A DNA stretch of 32,000 nt, from positions 674,048 to 706,047 of the forward strand of contig NC_000909.1 of NCBI RefSeq assembly GCF_000091665.1. Reading direction: 5' to 3'. Below are positions 12,564 through 24,478 of the stretch, in pieces. Every line of letters starts with the position of its first letter. Position 1 is the stretch's first letter. The notes beneath the pieces are model-generated. The model had not been told where the DNA came from and ran no database searches. It saw nothing but the letters and a program-made list of their open reading frames with translations. The translations under genes were made by a program, and so were the position numbers. This DNA is from Methanocaldococcus jannaschii DSM 2661 (GTDB taxonomy: Archaea > AGJL01 > Methanococci > Methanococcales > Methanocaldococcaceae).

Positions 12564-12760
12564 TTAATCACCCATATAAAACACATATTTAAAGAATATT
12601 TTTTATAAATGCAACTGAATTTTAACCTAATTTGCTAATTCAATTAATCAATTTTGCTGATTTACAATCTTATAATTAATTATAATATATAAAATAAAAA
12701 AAATGAAAAAATAAAAGATAAAATTAAAAATTAAAGGTTATTTTGGATTTTATATTATAT

Positions 12761-14407
12761 TTACCCAACTAATCTTTTAATATCTTCATCAACTGTTGAG
12801 ATCGTTGAGATTCCAAACTTCTCAACTAAAACTTTTGTCACATTTGGTGATAAGAACGCTGGTAGTGTAGGGCCTAATACTATATTCTTAACTCCCAAGT
12901 AAAGCAAAGCTAATAATACAGTAACTGCCTTTTGCTCATACCATGAGATGTTATAAGCGATTGGAAGTTCATTTACATCGTTTAAGCCAAATGCATCTTT
13001 TAAAGCCAGTGCAATTTTAACTAACGAATAGCTATCATTACACTGTCCAGCATCTAAAACTCTTGGAATTCCATCAATGTCTCCCAAATCTAATTTAATA
13101 AATCTATATTTTGCACATCCACATGTTAATATAACAGTATCTTTAGGCAGTTTTTTAGCAAATTCAGTATAATACTCTCTTGTTTTATGCCTTCCATCAC
13201 ATCCGGCCATTACAACGAATTTCCTTATTTTTCCACTTTTAACTGCTTCAATTACTTTATCTGCCAGTGCTAAAACTTGGTTATGAGCGAATCCTCCAAC
13301 AATCTTACCATTTTCGAGTGGTGTTGGTGGTTTGCATTTTTTAGCGTGCTCTATAACCTCTGAAAAGTCCTTAGTTCCATCCTCTTTTACTGGGATTCTC
13401 TTTAAGCCAGGATAGCCAACTTCGTTGGTTACATAAACCCTATCTTTATATGAGTCCTTTGGTGGAACTAAACAGTTTGTCGTCATCACTATTGGACCGT
13501 TGAATTTCTCAAATTCCTCTCTTTGGAACGGCCATGAACCTCCATAATTTCCAACGAAGTGCTCATATTTCTTAAAGAATGGGTAGTAGTGGGCTGGCAA
13601 CATCTCACAGTGGGTGTAGATATCAACTCCTGCATCCTTACTTTGCTCTAATAATTGCTCTAAATCTTTTAAGTCGTGACCACTAATCAATATTCCTGGT
13701 CTGTCTCTAACTCCCAAATTAACCTCTGTTATTTCTGGATGCCCATAGGTTTCAGTGTTCGCTTTATCTAATAATGCTAACGTTTCTACTGCATACTTTC
13801 CTGTCTCCATTGCTAAATTAAATAACTCATCAGCATCTTTGCTATCAACGATTTTAGTGAATGCTTTAATTATAAACTTATGAATGTCCTCATTGTTGTA
13901 GCCGAGATGCATGGCATGGCTTAGATAAGCTCCTATTCCTTTAATTCCATAAGTTATAAGCTCTTTTAATGATCTTATGTCTTCATTATCCTCTGCTAAG
14001 ACGCTAACTTCTTTTGTATTGGCTAAATTTATTAGATCTTCATCAGTTTCGTAAGCCCAAGTAGCACAGTATGGAAGTTCTTCTTTATTTAAATTATTTT
14101 TTTCTATAATTTTTTCTCTTAAAGCGACTCCTTTCTTTATCCAATTTATTACATCTTTATCATCAAAATTGACGTTAGTTATTGTTACAAATAATGCTTT
14201 TGGAATGTAATCCATAACTTCATCATCCAAGTAATTGCCTTTATCACAGACATAGCATAAACCTTTTATAGTATAAATCAATAAATCTTGGAGGTTTGCC
14301 ACAACATCATCTTTTCCACAGACTCCTTTTATTGTACATCCTTCATTTTTTGCTGCCTCTTGACATTGGAAGCAGAACATTTTTGTAGGTCTTGGTTCAA
14401 ATTTCAT
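12761..14407 (-). CDS. hcp: Hybrid-cluster (prismane) protein / hydroxylamine reductase
   Basis: N-terminal CxxCx8Cx5C ([21 protein letters not shown]). The 548-aa length and conserved blocks ([36 protein letters not shown]) are typical of Hcp. GGTGA box at 14412-14416. Confidence 0.9.
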
Positions 14408-17691: not shown

Positions 17692-18384
17692 GTGAATAAA
17701 TTGGTAAAGAAGGTTTATGGTGTTGGTGTAGGTGTTGGAGACAAAAAGCTATTAACATTAAAGGCATTAGAGGTTTTAAAAAAAGTAGATAAAATCTTTG
17801 TCCCAGTATCTAAAAAGGGGAAGAAATCTATTGCCTATGAAATTATAAAGGATTATGTTGATGGGAAGAATATTGAAGAACTTTTATTCCCCATGATTAA
17901 AGATAAAGAGAGGCTAAAAAAATACTGGGAAAATGCTTTAGAGAAGGTTTTAAAAGAAGATGGAGAAGTAGCTATAATAACCATTGGAGACCCTACATTG
18001 TATAGCACATTCTCCTATGTCTGGAAACTTTTAAAAGAAAGAGGGGTTGAGGTAGAGATAGTTAATGGCATTTCATCAATATTTGCCTCTGCAGCTGCTT
18101 TAAATATTCCATTAGTTGAAGGAGATGAAAAACTCTGCATTTTACCTCAAGGAAAGGATTTGGAAAAATATATTGATGAATTCGACACTATAATTATTAT
18201 GAAGACAAAGAATTTAAATGAGAAGCTATCAGTTATAAAAAATAGAGATGATTATATAATTGGGTTGGTAAAGAGGGCAACTTTTGAAGATGAAAAAGTA
18301 GTAATTGGTAAGTTAGACGAAATCAACTTTGATGAATTTAATGACTATCTCTCCTTAGCTATAATAAAGAGGTTTAAGAGATGA
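17692..18384 (+). CDS. cbiL: Cobalt-factor II / precorrin-2 C20-methyltransferase
   Basis: Tetrapyrrole methylase N-terminus VYGVGVGVGDKKLLTLKALEVLKKVDKIFVP, then ITIGDPTLYSTFSY. GTG start per the track. Confidence 0.8.
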   Translation: MNKLVKKVYGVGVGVGDKKLLTLKALEVLKKVDKIFVPVSKKGKKSIAYEIIKDYVDGKNIEELLFPMIKDKERLKKYWENALEKVLKEDGEVAIITIGDPTLYSTFSYVWKLLKERGVEVEIVNGISSIFASAAALNIPLVEGDEKLCILPQGKDLEKYIDEFDTIIIMKTKNLNEKLSVIKNRDDYIIGLVKRATFEDEKVVIGKLDEINFDEFNDYLSLAIIKRFKR

Positions 18385-19442
18385 AAATAATAAAAGCAGT
18401 TCCAGAAGAGTTTTTAAATGGATTGTATTTAATTCCAACTGACAGAGGGAATTTATTGGAATTAGATGAAAACGGAAATTTTGAGGTAGTTAATAATATA
18501 GCCATAATTAGGGTTTTAGCAACACCAAATTTAAAAAAGGCTATAGCCAAGATTGTCTATCAAATTAAAGATAAATACTACTTATTTAAAAATCATAAAA
18601 AAGCAAACTGGCTGAAAAATCTCTTAGAATATATGAACAATAAGATAGAGTTCGATAAATATTATAGAGCCAAAAAGGCATGGTATAGAGGAATAGGGGA
18701 TTTATTTAGAAATATAAGAAAATGGGAATTTGAAAAAGTTGTTGGAAAGATAATCTCACTATTAAAGGTTTTGAATCCAATAGTTGTCTTTGATGTTCAT
18801 GATATAAGAAAATGGCATTATAGGAAGAGTTTTATAAACTTTGTTAAAGAATTAAGGAAAAATAGTATAAGTGTTGTAATAAGATATCCAATTGACTGTC
18901 ATGAAGAGATTAGGGAGATTTTTCCAGAAGGCATTTTAAATACAAAAGCAACCATAAGATACTTTGCAAAGGTTCATGGTTATTATATAAGCGATAGAGT
19001 GGCTGAATATCTCCTAAAAATAACCAATGGAAACTTAGAAACAATATATTTGATATTAAGACACTCAAAAAGAGAGATAAAAAATCTTAGAGAGCTAAAA
19101 ATTCCATGGCTTAGGATTTTACCATATATAGTAGATTCGAAATATCGAAAATTGGTTGAAGTTATAATTGAACTAAGAAAGTTCAAAGTTGAAGATATTA
19201 CTTATAAAGTTAATTACAAATTATCAACCATATACAGATATTTAGATGAGTTGGTTGAGTTAGGAATACTGACAAAAATAAAACATAAAGGCAAAGTAAG
19301 ATTTAAAATAAGATTGAACAGAAATATTTTATTAACTCTCCTCAAAAAATCTAAAAATAACTATTTGCATTGGTTCTCTATTTTCTTGTTAGATAGCATA
19401 CCTTGGGATATACAGATTTTCGAATTTTCGAAAAGTATATAA
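18381..19442 (+). CDS. Winged-helix protein with a possible degenerate AAA+-like core (no intact P-loop)
   Basis: ATGA overlap with the cbiL stop. C-terminal wHTH is YKLSTIYRYLDELVELGILTKIKHKGKVRFKI. It has a Walker-B-like PIVVFDVHD and a lid-like ISDRVAEYLLKITNGNLETIYLILRHS. No GxxxxGK[ST]; YRGIGDLF may be a vestige. Confidence 0.5.
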   Translation: MKIIKAVPEEFLNGLYLIPTDRGNLLELDENGNFEVVNNIAIIRVLATPNLKKAIAKIVYQIKDKYYLFKNHKKANWLKNLLEYMNNKIEFDKYYRAKKAWYRGIGDLFRNIRKWEFEKVVGKIISLLKVLNPIVVFDVHDIRKWHYRKSFINFVKELRKNSISVVIRYPIDCHEEIREIFPEGILNTKATIRYFAKVHGYYISDRVAEYLLKITNGNLETIYLILRHSKREIKNLRELKIPWLRILPYIVDSKYRKLVEVIIELRKFKVEDITYKVNYKLSTIYRYLDELVELGILTKIKHKGKVRFKIRLNRNILLTLLKKSKNNYLHWFSIFLLDSIPWDIQIFEFSKSI

Positions 19443-19584
19443 TAATTAATAGTATTCATACTCAACTTAATGACAGTATTAATATTTATTGATTGTGTAA
19501 AGTTATGACAAAACTTTGTTTTCTTTTTTGGCATATAATTAATATTTTAAGAAACTTAATTTAAATATAAATTTCTTAAAAGGT

Positions 19585-19616
19585 TTTCGAATTTTCGAGT
19601 TACATGTATGTATATG
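19585..19616 (+). repeat. Left arm of the 32-nt inverted repeat
   Basis: TTTCGAATTTTCGAGTTACATGTATGTATATG, read directly from the sequence. Confidence 0.9.
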
Positions 19617-19928
19617 CAGAAAATCTTCGCCTAACTTAAAAAATGGTTGTGAATATCGCAAGCACAACTATTATACTATTGTACTTTTTTTCACAATATA
19701 AGTTAAAATAGTAAAAATTTTTTATTTTATATTTTAATATTAATTATTGTAAAATATTTCCAATAAATATTGTTAAAAAATGTTATTTTAAAAAAATAAA
19801 AATAAAAAAACCATAATTAGCTCTAAAACTCTAACGTTATACGTTTATAATACAAAATAGTGTATAATATCCTTTACTCTAATTTTGCGATAATTCGTTT
19901 TTCAGAAAAAGTTGTCCATTCTGTTGGT

Positions 19929-19960
19929 CATATACATACATGCAACTCGAAAATTCGAAA
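19929..19960 (-). repeat. Right arm of the 32-nt inverted repeat (31/32 identical to the left arm)
   Basis: The reverse complement of 19929-19960 is TTTCGAATTTTCGAGTTGCATGTATGTATATG. It lies 4 nt from the stop codon of the 175-aa gene. Confidence 0.9.
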
Positions 19961-19964
19961 TTCG

Positions 19965-20492
19965 TTAATCTTGATTTTTCAATGTTTTATAGAGCCGTTT
20001 CAAATAATCAATGTGTTTGCATGTATCACTCTGACAGATAACACACCACCAATAGCCTTTATTGCTTCTAAAAACATCACCTAAATGCTCTCCATTGGAA
20101 TCAAAGAATGAAAATACTATTCCTCCAAGTTTATCCTCTTTCCAGCTGATTTCAAACCCTATTTTATCCACTGGGTAATACTTAGTGGCAATTTTCTTTT
20201 TAGGTAATTGTTCGAAAACACTCGAAAAACTCAAATCGAATATTTCTGGAGCCAATCTTTTTAATATCGCCAATCCTTTTGATGTAAATGAATATAAAAC
20301 TTTATGTCCCGCTCTTTCTCTCTTCATTATATTTAGAGCCGAACATAGCCTCAAAAAAGAGCTTGCAAGACCTTTCGATATATTTAAATTTTCTGCGAGT
20401 GATTGTGGATAGGTTGTGCCACGTATTAACACATAATGTAAAATCGCCTTTCTAAATATAGTTGATACTATTTCATAAGGCAATCTTTCCAT
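19965..20492 (-). CDS. Winged-helix DNA-binding protein with C-terminal SWIM-like zinc finger
   Basis: wHTH: TYPQSLAENLNISKGLASSFLRLCSALNIMKRERAGHKVLYSFTSKGL. C-terminus: WWCVICQSDTCKHIDYLKRL (CxxC...CxH). GGGTG box upstream of the ATG at 20490-20492. Confidence 0.6.
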   Translation of the reverse strand: MERLPYEIVSTIFRKAILHYVLIRGTTYPQSLAENLNISKGLASSFLRLCSALNIMKRERAGHKVLYSFTSKGLAILKRLAPEIFDLSFSSVFEQLPKKKIATKYYPVDKIGFEISWKEDKLGGIVFSFFDSNGEHLGDVFRSNKGYWWCVICQSDTCKHIDYLKRLYKTLKNQD

Positions 20493-20581
20493 ATTTACAC
20501 CCAGTATTCCTAATAACTATTATTGTTGTGATTTTGTTTTGTTGATACTCAATTATATTTGACATACTCGTTTATAAAACT

Positions 20582-21049
20582 TTTGATTCATGGGATTGTT
20601 TTAACCCCTATGTGTTGGGTGTAGTAATACTAACATTTTAAGAACGTCTCTTTGAGTATGTTTCTATATTGTACCAATATTTATCTCTTTCTATTATTTT
20701 GTTGTTATATGCTATTTTTTACTAATAATTCTTAGATTTAATATACTGTTAATTTACATATAATCTTTGATTCATAGTTTTTTATTGGTTATATTATTTG
20801 ATTCACGATATCTTATTTTTAATATTTTGAAGCAATTCCTATGAGAAGAATTAAAATTAACTTTATTTCATTAGAATAATATATATATTATATTTAATTT
20901 CATTCAAGTTTATTTCTGAAAATAATAATCACTTATTCTATATGAAATATTGTTTGATTCATTAGATTTTTTAATTTTATTGTTTGATTCATGAGATTTT
21001 TAATAAACTTTATAATAAAACATTTAAATTTAAGAATAATTGATTCAAT
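20582..21049 (+). repeat. Array of six co-oriented TTTGATTCA(T) boxes in the divergent intergenic region
   Basis: Boxes at 20582-20591, 20766-20775, 20797-20806 (..CAC), 20953-20962, 20983-20992 and 21040-21049 (ATTGATTCAAT variant). The boxes at 20948-20971 and 20978-21001 sit in 24-nt repeats with one mismatch, 30 bp apart. A degenerate copy TTTATTTCATTAG lies at 20862-20874. Confidence 0.8.
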
Positions 21050-21179
21050 CTATCTTTCGATTTTTCGAAATCTATATAACGTTCTTAAGACAAAAGTTCG
21101 AAATCAATGGAAAATATTGTAGATAATTAGTAGATAATTAATTTAAATAAATTAATTTATATTTTATTGCGGTGGAAAC

Positions 21180-22409
21180 ATGGACCCAATAGAGTTTATA
21201 CAAAAATCTGCAAGCTCTATAGCAAGCACCATGCATAAATTAAAATTAAAATACAATCCATTTTCTGAAAAGCCAATAAGGGGAAATACAAAGTTTTTTG
21301 TAGGTAGAGTTAGCGAGTTAAGGGAAATTGGAGAAATTTTAGGTTCTGCATTGCATGGTAGTGTTGCTAACGCTGCAATAGTTGGAACTAAGGGGATAGG
21401 GAAGAGTTCAATGCTAAACATCATATACTATGCAACAAAAAAGCAGGGACATTGGGTTGTTGAGATGACTGCCTCTCAGGTAACACCAAGGCAGTTTTTG
21501 ATACAGCTCTTATACAATATATTAACTGAAAACATCATAACCATGAGTGGAACGATAAAATCTGATTACATGGAACATTCAAGTAGAATTTTAGATATGT
21601 ATAGGAAGTTAAACAACTATGGGGATAAAGTTCCTATCCACTATCCAAGGGAGAGGATTGAGAGGGATTTGGAATATCTAATAAATGAAGTTAAAAGTCC
21701 TGATAAGTTATGTATAATTTTAATTGATGAAGCTGACCAATTTGCAAAAAAGAGCTGTTTAAGTTTATTACAATTTTTCCACTCGTTTTTGTATGAAGAG
21801 GGAATTTTAACGTTTATGGCTGGTTCTCCAACATTGATGGATGATTTAACAAAGATATCTCCACCAATAAAGGATAGAATTCCAAAAATAATAAATATGC
21901 CTCCTTTATCAAAAGATGAGTCCTATGATTTAATTAGAAGAAGATTGGAAGATGCTCATATTGATGGAGCAGAGGAGTTTGAGCCGTTTACTGAAGAGGC
22001 TATTCATAAAATTGTTGAAGAGTGTGACGGAATTCCAAGAAAGATAATAATGACATGCTCTGAATCAATATCAATAGCTATAAGAAAGGGTTTAACTAAA
22101 ATAGATGAGAAGGTTGTTAAAGAGGCTATGCATTCTCTTGGCATTAGTGTAGGACATCAAATTCTAAACCACTTAACTCCTGCCCAATCAGAGATTGTTA
22201 GGGCAATGGCTGAGCTTGGAGGTTCAGCAACGGTAACACAATTAGCTGAATATTTAAAAAAATCACCAAGTACTATTGGAACTCATCTCTCTGACATCTA
22301 TGAGATGGGATATATTTATAAAGAAAGGGAAGGAAACAACGTATATTATAAACTATCTAAAGAACTTAGGGATGTCTTAATAGGTGAAGATGATGAATTG
22401 GAGATGTGA
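21180..22409 (+). CDS. Divergent Orc1/Cdc6-like AAA+ ATPase with C-terminal winged helix
   Basis: Walker A GTKGIGKSS, Walker B LCIILIDEAD, lid-like FTEEAIHKIVEECDGIPRKIIMTCSESISIA. C-terminal wHTH ATVTQLAEYLKKSPSTIGTHLSDIYEMGYIYKEREGNNVYYKLS. GGTGG box at 21171-21175. Confidence 0.7.
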   Translation: MDPIEFIQKSASSIASTMHKLKLKYNPFSEKPIRGNTKFFVGRVSELREIGEILGSALHGSVANAAIVGTKGIGKSSMLNIIYYATKKQGHWVVEMTASQVTPRQFLIQLLYNILTENIITMSGTIKSDYMEHSSRILDMYRKLNNYGDKVPIHYPRERIERDLEYLINEVKSPDKLCIILIDEADQFAKKSCLSLLQFFHSFLYEEGILTFMAGSPTLMDDLTKISPPIKDRIPKIINMPPLSKDESYDLIRRRLEDAHIDGAEEFEPFTEEAIHKIVEECDGIPRKIIMTCSESISIAIRKGLTKIDEKVVKEAMHSLGISVGHQILNHLTPAQSEIVRAMAELGGSATVTQLAEYLKKSPSTIGTHLSDIYEMGYIYKEREGNNVYYKLSKELRDVLIGEDDELEM

Positions 22410-23380: not shown

Positions 23381-24478
23381 TTGAAAGCTTTGGTTTTAGG
23401 TATCAACACAAGGCCTGTAGTTAATTCTCTTAAAAAATTAGGATTTTATGTATATTCAGTCTCTTACTACGCCCCAGAAGATTTAAATGCTGATGAGAAA
23501 TATTATTTGATAAATCCTTTAGTTCATGGAAGATTAAAAGAAAACTATGATGAAAACAAATTAATTGAAATAGCTAATAAATTAGCTGATGAAGTTGATT
23601 GTATCTTTATAACTTCAGGTGTTTTTGAATTCGAAAATTCGAAAATTCCAGGATGGGATAATGTTATAGGTAATGGGCCAAAAAAGATAAATGAAATCAG
23701 TAACAAATATAAAACATATAAGAAATTAAAAAATCTTGGTTTTAATATACCAGAAACTAAGAAAATAAACAATAAGACTCAATTATATAAATTTTTGGAA
23801 GAATTTAAAACCTGCATTTTAAAGCCTATCTACGGGAGTGGAGGAAGTATTTTAAAGATAGAATTAAATAACTTTGATGATGAGATAATTAATGAAATTA
23901 AGTTCCCAATTATTGCTCAGGAATATATTAGAGGGAAAAGTTTTAGTGCCAACTTTATAGGCAATACATTTATAACCTTTAACAAACAAATTATAATTAA
24001 GGGAATGTATGCTGGGAATTTAACTCCATATATTAATTTACCAAATAAGTTTGTTGAAATATTTGGTGAGGTTATAGAATCTTTTGAATTAAAAGGAATG
24101 AGTGGCATTGATTTTTTGATTAAAGATAATGGTCCTTATATTGTTGATATAAATCCTCGCATTTTAGGAACTTATGAGACCATAGAGATGAGTGCATCTC
24201 AAAATTTGGCAATGGTTTTGCTAAATAATAAGTATGCCAAGGAGATTAAACCAAGAAAAGTATATATAAAAAGAATATTGTTTGCTAAAGAGAAAATTAT
24301 CGCTAATATATCAAAAAGGGACTTTATACATGATATTCCAAAGAAAAATGCAGTTATAGAGAAAGGAGAGCCTATAGCTACAGTAATTGCAAAAGAAAAC
24401 ATTAAATCAATAATAAACAGTGTTTATGAGGAGTGTGCAGAGTATGAGAAAAGAAAAGAAGATAGAGAGAATATATGA
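23381..24478 (+). CDS. ATP-grasp domain protein of unknown substrate
   Basis: The track ORF starts at 23327. I favour TTG at 23381 (AGGTGG at 23371-23376), giving MKALVLGINTRP. ATP-grasp blocks: ILKPIYGSGGS, IAQEYIRG, MSGIDFLIKDNGPYIVDINPR. Confidence 0.7.
   Translation: MKALVLGINTRPVVNSLKKLGFYVYSVSYYAPEDLNADEKYYLINPLVHGRLKENYDENKLIEIANKLADEVDCIFITSGVFEFENSKIPGWDNVIGNGPKKINEISNKYKTYKKLKNLGFNIPETKKINNKTQLYKFLEEFKTCILKPIYGSGGSILKIELNNFDDEIINEIKFPIIAQEYIRGKSFSANFIGNTFITFNKQIIIKGMYAGNLTPYINLPNKFVEIFGEVIESFELKGMSGIDFLIKDNGPYIVDINPRILGTYETIEMSASQNLAMVLLNNKYAKEIKPRKVYIKRILFAKEKIIANISKRDFIHDIPKKNAVIEKGEPIATVIAKENIKSIINSVYEECAEYEKRKEDRENI

Follow-up and report, generated by a model that had tools for sequence, protein, structure and literature searches.

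A co-oriented five-box array as a candidate protein-binding site in the predicted replication-origin region of Methanococcales

What are the short repeated boxes that lie upstream of an Orc1/Cdc6-like gene in Methanocaldococcus jannaschii, which protein reads them, and do they belong to the chromosomal replication origin? Reviews describe Methanococcales as lacking a canonical Orc1/Cdc6 and an experimentally mapped origin, with the origin standing as an in-silico prediction without validation and the initiation mechanism not established. The predicted oriC adjoins MJ0774, the "Mc-pRIP" of the Tianjin group, and is Mc-pRIP-adjacent in DoriC (Zhang & Zhang 2004; Gao et al. 2013; Luo et al. 2014). 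Table 1 of Ori-Finder 2 gives a "Methanococcaceae" ORB motif, TT[TA][GT]ATTCA[TC][GA]AT[AT]T[AT]T[AT], derived with MEME from the origins predicted in DoriC (PMC4164010). A 2026 preprint on Ori-Finder-Arch takes the M. jannaschii oriC to lie beside Mc-pRIP and to fit an ORB(-)/DUE/ORB(+) layout.

We analysed this locus within a 32,000-nucleotide stretch of the M. jannaschii DSM 2661 chromosome (the window, from whose first letter positions are counted) and compared orthologous loci in 14 genomes of Methanocaldococcus, Methanotorris, Methanothermococcus and Methanococcus. The boxes lie in gap B (20493-21179), a 687-bp interval flanked by a minus-strand ORF of 175 aa and a plus-strand ORF of 409 aa. 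On the other side of the 175-aa ORF, gap A (19443-19964) separates the 3' ends of two genes arranged tail to tail. Three genes frame the two gaps:

18381-19442, plus strand: MJ0772, 353 aa, 100% identical to the protein known from M. jannaschii, which looks like a degenerate AAA+-lid-winged-helix protein
19965-20492, minus strand: MJ0773-type gene, 175 aa, encoding a candidate binder of the boxes
21180-22409, plus strand: MJ0774 (Mc-pRIP), 409 aa, encoding a divergent Orc1/Cdc6-like AAA+ protein, the other candidate binder

Downstream of MJ0774 come a folE2-type GTP cyclohydrolase gene and then an ATP-grasp gene. From the comparison of orthologous loci, the ancestral order is MCM, MJ0772-like gene, gap A, MJ0773-like gene, gap B and Mc-pRIP. 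Zhang and Zhang reportedly gave the M. jannaschii oriC in 2004 as 694,540-695,226, an interval of 687 bp, the length of gap B.

Sequence, enrichment and conservation of the boxes

A sequence-only reading of this DNA had described six co-oriented boxes and one degenerate copy in gap B, two of the boxes lying within 24-nt repeats, and its coordinates, repeats, gap length and flanking ORFs were all borne out. TTTGATTCAT occurs at 20582, 20766, 20953 and 20983, TTTGATTCAC at 20797, ATTGATTCAAT at 21039 and TTTATTTCAT at 20862; the 24-nt repeats occupy 20948-20971 and 20978-21001, 30 bp apart. The features of gap B that concern the array are the following:

20582-20599, plus strand: box 1, TTTGATTCATGGGATTGT, with GATTCA invariant in one alignment; overlaps, on the opposite strand, the BRE proposed for the MJ0773 promoter
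20766-20783, plus strand: box 2, TTTGATTCATAGTTTTTT, with TTCATAG invariant in 11 genomes
20797-20814, plus strand: box 3, TTTGATTCACGATATCTT, with ATTCA invariant; paired with box 2 at 31 bp
20843-20925, no strand assigned: central element, between box pairs 2-3 and 4-5, holding the 20862 copy
20953-20970, plus strand: box 4, TTTGATTCATTAGATTTT, within the 24-nt repeat 20948-20971
20983-21000, plus strand: box 5, TTTGATTCATGAGATTTT, within the 24-nt repeat 20978-21001; paired with box 4 at 30 bp
21039-21049, plus strand: sixth copy, ATTGATTCAAT, not conserved and specific to M. jannaschii

The box core is ATTCA, which in Methanocaldococcus takes the form of TTTGATTCAYGA with a T-rich continuation, and T-rich tails such as GATATTTTT follow the boxes. 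TTTGATTCA occurs five times in the 32-kb window, against a mean of 1.46 in whole-window shuffles, and all five copies fall within 20582-20991 and on the plus strand. TTGATTCA occurs eight times in the window, and six of these copies lie in gap B, spanning 465 bp (binomial P = 2.6e-9 for six of eight copies within 687/32000 of the window). All six are on the plus strand, in agreement with the single orientation claimed earlier. Over 5000 first-order Markov simulations of gap B, which is AT-rich (16-30% GC), copies averaged 0.085 and never exceeded 2.

Compared with the published ORB motif, boxes 2, 3 and 5 show one mismatch, box 4 two and box 1 three, and boxes 2, 3 and 5 are the sole matches with at most one mismatch on either strand of the 32-kb window. 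By sequence and by place beside MJ0774, the TTTGATTCA boxes are thus the element already published as the predicted Methanococcaceae ORB, and as a sequence finding they are a rediscovery. The Ori-Finder 2 and DoriC descriptions consulted consist of a MEME motif and a gene-adjacency rule only. They do not include strict co-orientation or a fixed five-site geometry, linkage of the array to MJ0773 rather than MJ0774, or a second motif family in the neighbouring gap. What our comparison adds to the published prediction is the five-site anatomy, the MJ0773 linkage and the origin-like layout of gap A.

The five boxes keep their position, orientation and spacing in 13 of the 14 Methanococcales genomes, across four genera; M. 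voltae has four, without a recognisable box 3. Measured from the 175-aa start codon, the A-positions of the ATTCA cores stand at about 94, 278, 309, 465 and 495 nt, and box 1 is present in every genome at about 94 nt (range 82-96, with 82 in M. voltae). Boxes 1 and 2 are 182-185 bp apart in most genomes but 177-180 bp in M. voltae and Methanothermococcus Ax23, boxes 2 and 3 are 30-31 bp apart in 13 genomes, boxes 3 and 4 are 155-157 bp apart (147 in Methanotorris), and boxes 4 and 5 are 30-31 bp apart in all. The spacings of 30-31 and about 156 bp correspond to whole turns at about 10.4 bp per turn (about 3 and about 15). The DNA between the boxes is mostly diverged across the compared genomes. 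Over the 14 loci, TTNNATTCAY occurs 53 times in the gaps (5.7 per kb) versus 39 times outside them (0.27 per kb), a 21-fold difference in density, and none of the 53 copies lies on the minus strand of the gap. In M. maripaludis, all five copies have changed in concert to TTATATTCACAAT, as expected for sites read by one protein.

Alignment of the orthologous intergenic regions thus found the boxes conserved in all four genera, and the earlier suggestion of an iterated binding-site array gains strong backing from position, orientation and spacing held order-wide while the intervening DNA diverged. Because the boxes are conserved, we infer that protein binding at the five sites is very probable. 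The conserved array is smaller than first listed: of the seven copies, five are conserved orthologous sites, and those at 21039 and 20862 are not. At 21039, relatives whose AAA+ protein is 97-98% identical carry ATTAATTACAT, and the copy is missing from every other genus among the compared genomes; it is probably not a member of a functional array.

The copy at 20862, previously called degenerate, turned out to be part of a separate conserved element, palindromic and TATA-centred, that is the most conserved block of gap B in the 14 genomes. Its inverted arms, AACTTTATT (20859-20867) and ATTCAAGTT (20902-20910), enclose a TWTATATA-type run at 20880-20887 that matches the TATA consensus for methanogen promoters (PMC2699501). 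The arms pair in 90% of cells, compared with 14-57% when the partner is slid; two pairs have changed on both sides, and the covariation score was reached by 2 of 500 shuffles. Only one other 100-bp stretch of the locus is less stable than this element, which has 12% GC and ranks among the least stable DNA of the window. An Rfam scan of 19300-21300 (E<=5) returned chance-level matches only and no known RNA. A 43-aa ATG ORF that starts in box 5 shows no conservation, and gap B holds no credible small ORF.

Linkage of the array to MJ0773 and candidate binding proteins

The boxes adjoin the Mc-pRIP (MJ0774-type) gene in M. jannaschii and 11 other genomes. The exceptions are M. indicus and M. infernus, which keep the array without the gene beside it. 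In M. indicus the AAA+ gene lies 450 kb off, 24 bp behind an unrelated gene and with no boxes near it; in M. infernus it is absent from the locus and lies elsewhere. In both species the 175-aa gene still has the central element and the boxes upstream of it, with GINS23 (M. indicus) or an F420 ligase gene as the array's neighbour. What has been lost from the gap in these two species, where the AAA+ gene moved, is TTTCGAnnTTTCGAAAT-TATATAA, the module found at 21055-21103 in M. jannaschii. The promoters proposed for the two divergent genes are:

20550-20579, minus strand: putative MJ0773 promoter, proposed from sequence, conserved columns and the promoter geometry of PMC2699501
21055-21103, plus strand: promoter module proposed for the AAA+ gene, with TTTCGATTTTTCGAAATCTATATAA and then, at 21097, a second TTCGAAA; belongs to the TTCGAA motif family

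The TATA of the AAA+ gene is bracketed by TTCGAAA elements, not by ATTCA boxes. Comparison of the repeat families upheld the earlier distinction between the box motif and the TTCGAA family of the neighbouring gap. The sequence-only reading had placed the array upstream of the Orc1/Cdc6-like gene, but the array is not tied to that gene, since it persists beside the 175-aa gene in M. indicus and M. infernus. Its proposal of an autoregulatory operator for a flanking winged-helix protein finds no support for the AAA+ gene, given the retained array and the TTCGAAA-bracketed TATA: when the gene moves, the array stays and the TTTCGAnnTTTCGAAAT-TATATAA module is lost, which speaks against the TTGATTCA boxes being that gene's autoregulatory operator.

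The TATA-like TTTTATAAAC, read on the MJ0773 strand, corresponds to the reverse complement of 20570-20579, and a conserved ATAATTG (20550-20557) lies about 21-28 nt downstream of it, at the expected place of an initiator. Box 1 overlaps the nine nucleotides that lie upstream of the TATA-like TTTTATAAA on this strand, which is the place of the BRE in M. jannaschii promoters (PMC2699501). Given this overlap of box 1 with the putative MJ0773 BRE/TATA, transcription of MJ0773 would also be subject to feedback from occupancy of the array. The transcription-start data of Zhang et al. 2009 leave out MJ0772-0775.

MJ0773 combines an N-terminal ArsR/MarR-like (also PadR-like) winged helix with a beta-rich C-terminal domain carrying an invariant CX2CX4CXH motif. 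The N-terminal domain has weak sequence and fold similarity to AspA and TubR (E 0.003-0.2). The family is confined to Methanococcales, with four full-length clusters among 1.84 billion representative proteins, and the array has the same order-restricted distribution. MJ0774 matches AAA_16, ATPase_2 and a C-terminal HTH_5 winged helix; its match to TIGR02928 (orc1/cdc6), at 7.5e-11, is below the model cut-off. The confident predicted model of MJ0772 (pLDDT 83.5) finds the archaeal Orc1/Cdc6-DNA complexes 2qby_A and 2v1u_A as its top PDB matches, at weak scores (E 4e-3 to 1e-2, TM 0.22), followed by ORC and RFC subunits. Hda_lid is weakly matched in 8 of 13 members of the MJ0772 family, and MJ0772 has a winged-helix match, also weak, at 247-305. 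The gene directly follows MCM in Methanococcus and Methanotorris, with gaps of 5-84 bp in four genomes. Paralogy of MJ0772 and Mc-pRIP found no support by sequence, where profile-profile alignment covered the winged helix only, at a probability of 5%.

As to which protein reads the boxes, setting the recognition helices against the box variants did not separate MJ0773 from MJ0774. The box flanks differ in M. maripaludis and M. voltae, the species with a highly diverged MJ0773, and this coincidence is suggestive of MJ0773 as the binder. The winged helix of Mc-pRIP is invariant across genera, as is the ATTCA core. Further support for MJ0773 comes from the array staying with it where the AAA+ gene lies elsewhere, from box 1 abutting its putative TATA and from the order-restricted distribution that its family shares with the array. 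We lean slightly and tentatively towards MJ0773, and regard Mc-pRIP as a possible but slightly less favoured candidate.

Origin-like layout of gap A and comparison with known systems

Gap A lies between two gene 3' ends, so no promoter is needed there. It contains the following feature:

19583-19962, no strand assigned: ORB(-)/DUE/ORB(+)-like unit, with inverted repeats TTTCGAATTTTCGAGTTACATGTATGTATATG at 19585-19616 and 19929-19960

The arms are 32 nt long and 97% complementary, and the core at 19700-19810, with 6-7% GC, ties as the least stable DNA of the 32-kb window. Across genomes, the inverted 32-37-nt TTTCGAnTTTTCGA repeats read TTTCGrnTTTTCGA then GTTGCATGTATGTATA and stand about 370 bp apart, and inner inverted AATTATCACAA repeats are visible in most genomes. 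This layout is kept in 13 of 14 genomes; the exception is M. voltae, where the left arm alone was matched and a truncated remnant of the right arm stands at the border of the extracted gap. Gap A is 457-620 bp long in 13 genomes and 840 bp in one MAG with a truncated 353-aa ORF. The 3' end of MJ0772 carries another copy of TTTCGAATTTTCGAAA at 19418-19433. With inverted TTTCGAnTTTTCGA repeats around an AT-rich core, gap A has a better origin layout than gap B. GC skew across the 32-kb window follows gene strand and is uninformative on the origin.

Canonical archaeal ORB and mini-ORB elements (Pyrococcus, Sulfolobus, Methanothermobacter) are, like the boxes of gap B, short repeats in AT-rich intergenic DNA beside an Orc1/Cdc6-type gene, and the TTCAC half-site of the boxes resembles TTTCAC/TCCAC. 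Multiple direct copies of mini-ORBs occur at origins of the Pyrococcus, Sulfolobus and Methanothermobacter type. The boxes differ in having a TGATTCA/ATTCAY core without a TTCCA..TGGAA-type dyad, which the Orc1 winged-helix domain recognises, no G-rich extension (GGGGT), the part that the AAA+ ISM contacts, and no DUE between inverted copies, a layout found instead in gap A with another motif. A further difference lies in MJ0774, whose ArsR-type HTH_5 stands where the canonical counterparts have the Cdc6 winged-helix domain.

Plasmid iterons (pPS10, P1, F, RK2) offer a second likeness, in that the boxes are likewise co-oriented, in helical phase and beside a 12% GC core and winged-helix genes. 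Iterons are Rep-binding direct repeats beside the genes of their binding proteins, with a coupled autoregulatory site, and are usually contiguous (a register of about 22 bp), three to seven in one block. In contrast, the boxes here are dispersed (184, 31, 156 and 30 bp), as two pairs plus one single box across 420 bp. The element is on the chromosome, and the flanking proteins yielded no Rep-family match. BLAST of the array against PLSDB plasmids gave chance AT-rich matches only. A scan of IMG/VR for two boxes 30 bp apart gave unrelated contigs among the matches listed, the pattern being too unspecific.

The R1 parC/ParR and pNOB8 AspA centromeres likewise combine two direct-repeat clusters flanking a promoter with the gene of a small DNA-binding adaptor, a winged helix in AspA of pNOB8 and a ribbon-helix-helix protein in ParR. 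Here there is no conserved partition NTPase, repeats are far fewer and the winged-helix likeness is generic. The closest functional precedent for a second origin motif with an accessory reader is the ucm/UBP system of Sulfolobus, in which a second conserved origin motif, unrelated to ORB and needed for origin function, is read by the accessory protein UBP, a genome-wide nucleoid protein, rather than by the initiator (Dhanaraju et al. 2025, PMC12141716). Sequence and protein are different in that system; in our case a local array adjoins the gene of its candidate binder.

Competing explanations and what they would mean

Our preferred explanation, which we hold at about even confidence, is that the five conserved boxes form a fixed-geometry, head-to-tail protein-binding array in the replication-origin region of Methanococcales, accessory to the unwinding site. 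A winged-helix protein encoded next door would bind the boxes on one helix face and build a polar nucleoprotein scaffold around the conserved TATA-centred palindrome. This scaffold would adjoin, without replacing, the ORB-DUE-ORB-like unit of gap A, where unwinding is more likely. A link of the array to replication is probable because its neighbours include MCM, a pair of Orc-like proteins, the ORB-DUE-ORB-like unit and, in one rearranged genome, GINS23. We favour an accessory array over the origin proper because the boxes share one orientation, show no ORB hallmarks and stay with MJ0773.

Gap B itself is, in our estimation, unlikely to be oriC, with the ATTCA boxes acting as Mc-pRIP ORBs that flank the AT-rich central palindrome as unwinding element. 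The published motif and prediction, together with the Mc-pRIP-adjacent placement in the Ori-Finder-Arch preprint, point to this gap, but the array does not accompany the Mc-pRIP gene in M. indicus or M. infernus, and the Mc-pRIP promoter is bracketed by the other motif family. The very unstable central element could let gap B itself unwind, yet the boxes are co-oriented rather than inverted around the AT-rich core, and both the inverted long repeats and the lower stability belong to gap A. In sequence, the constancy of the ATTCA core goes along with that of the Mc-pRIP winged helix, and TTCAC resembles mini-ORB half-sites and the TTTCAC of Methanobacteriaceae and Halobacteriaceae ORB motifs (PMC4164010). 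Mc-pRIP could therefore be the binder, as the literature assumes, although the tail of the boxes is T-rich instead of G-rich. It also seems improbable that the array is purely a transcriptional operator or enhancer without a replication role, at which MJ0773 cooperatively binds five phased sites and autoregulates its own and the divergent promoter. Such a role fits the array's place in a divergent promoter region equally well, and box 1 does overlap the putative BRE/TATA of MJ0773, but a distance of 180-400 bp separates four of the five sites from the promoter that they would control. The array stands at a fixed distance from the MJ0773 start codon in the 14 genomes and follows that gene, whereas spacings held order-wide, mostly to 1-3 bp, would be unusual for a simple autoregulator. 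The ArsR/MarR/PadR-like winged helix of MJ0773 and the consensus TATA within the central element also suit regulation. Against them stand the lack of a ligand or metabolic operon associated with the locus and the conserved neighbours (MCM, two Orc-like proteins and the ORB-DUE-ORB-like gap).

A centromere-like partition site, with iterated direct repeats on both sides of a promoter and a small winged-helix adaptor that binds them (as in ParR/parC of R1, AspA of pNOB8 or TubR), is very unlikely. Two co-oriented repeat clusters do flank a TATA-containing core and the N-terminal domain of MJ0773 weakly resembles AspA and TubR, but these matches are of a generic winged-helix kind, the repeats are few and widely spaced, and no ParA, ParM or TubZ-type motor gene is conserved at the compared loci. 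The idea that the boxes are a functionless chance or low-complexity repeat could draw on the AT-richness of gap B. It is effectively refuted by the conservation data: the orthologous boxes persist in four genera despite diverged flanks, the copies lie on a single strand, and composition-matched simulations never give six of them.

A bolder version of the accessory-array explanation, rather unlikely as a whole, holds that the boxes are an MJ0773 docking array, not Orc-type ORBs, that the true origin lies in gap A, and that Methanococcales origins are bipartite, with two motif families and different reader proteins. If so, a phased, polar scaffold beside the origin would be built by MJ0773, a winged-helix/zinc protein specific to the order, and the origin itself would be the inverted TTTCGAnTTTTCGA repeats with their DUE. 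The DoriC oriC of M. jannaschii would then have been placed one gap too far to the right, and the direct repeats might give iteron-like copy-number control in polyploid cells.

How chromosome replication starts in Methanococcales is a long-standing gap, and the boxes are the sequence signature behind the sole existing origin prediction. The comparative data sharpen that prediction to five fixed-geometry sites, three candidate binders and a competing origin-like unit 1 kb away. If the boxes are read by MJ0773 and not by the Orc-like protein, the published origin assignment and the motif's label would need revision.

The central element and the AAA+ gene promoter

Gap B, the divergent gap between the winged-helix gene MJ0773 and the Orc1/Cdc6-like AAA+ gene MJ0774, holds the following besides the five conserved ATTCA-core boxes:

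Window 20843-20925: central element, strongly conserved, between the box pairs
Window 21071-21078: CTATATAA, the AAA+ gene's putative TATA, inside a module at 21055-21103

We found that the central element is built around a TWTATATA consensus box flanked by inverted arms (AACTTTATT and ATTCAAGTT, 43 bp centre to centre), and that a C:G pair of these arms is replaced by A:T in M. infernus and by T:A in M. maripaludis. Possible roles for the element are a bidirectional promoter, a site bound by a dimer, or a stretch of DNA that forms a hairpin.

The putative TATA has TTTCGATTTTTCGAAAT on its upstream side and TTCGAAA on the other, at 21097; a 25-nt near-copy (88%) is present at 19418-19442, where MJ0772 has its 3' end. 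In the AAA+ gene's leader region, window 21119-21140 is a perfect 11-bp tandem duplication (GTAGATAATTA twice), at which seven of the ten other aligned genomes, the closest strains included, show a 16-nt alignment gap.

Altered loci in other Methanococcales

M. indicus has its AAA+ gene 450 kb away from the box array and 24 bp downstream of a 369-aa gene that is unrelated; the array's divergent neighbour there is a gene cluster encoding GINS23 and ribosomal proteins L44e and S27e (local coordinates, L010 3976-4001 and L011 2916-4000). The module at 21055-21103 is missing from the gap in genomes with a relocated AAA+ gene. The M. aeolicus gap upstream of the AAA+ gene (L012 3147-4000) is about 170 bp longer and carries an additional tandem run of three AATATTCAAT copies near that gene; these repeats contain ATTCA but otherwise differ from the conserved boxes.

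The neighbouring proteins

Window 18381-19442: MJ0772, 353 aa, annotated as "transcriptional regulator"

The AlphaFold2 model of MJ0772 is confident, and its top PDB matches, albeit with weak scores, are the archaeal Orc1/Cdc6-DNA complexes 2qby_A and 2v1u_A. The protein gave weak matches to Hda-lid and winged-helix, it has no P-loop, and an MCM gene directly precedes its counterpart in Methanococcus and Methanotorris. MJ0772 may be a second, degenerate Orc-like protein. MJ0773 (window 19965-20492) matched no Pfam family; a WWC-x2-C-x4-C-x-H motif in its C-terminal domain (protein residues 148-160), invariant across the family, probably forms a zinc site, in fusion with the winged helix.

An origin-like layout between MJ0772 and MJ0773

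Window 19418-19964: gap A, separating the tail-to-tail genes MJ0772 and MJ0773, with an ORB(-)/DUE/ORB(+)-like arrangement
Window 20209-20226, minus strand: TTCGA-N-TTCGA copy TTTTCGAGTGTTTTCGAA, inside MJ0773, encoding the conserved SFSSVFE
Window 23630-23643: TTCGA-N-TTCGA copy TTCGAAAATTCGAAA, inside the ATP-grasp gene, retained in close relatives

The two TTCGA-N-TTCGA copies within coding sequence may be functional sites or mere coding-sequence by-products. A further unstable segment, with about 8% GC and equal in instability to the gap A core, lies at window 12640-12780.

Gap A holds outer inverted repeats of 32 nt with 97% complementarity (TTTCGAATTTTCGAGTTACATGTATGTATATG, at 19585-19616 and 19929-19960). 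These enclose a core with a GC content of 6-7% and an inner set of inverted repeats of the ATTATCACAA type. This layout is kept in nearly all of the 14 Methanococcales genomes, with M. voltae matching the left arm only. Gap A, the next gap leftward from the published oriC, may be the actual unwinding site.
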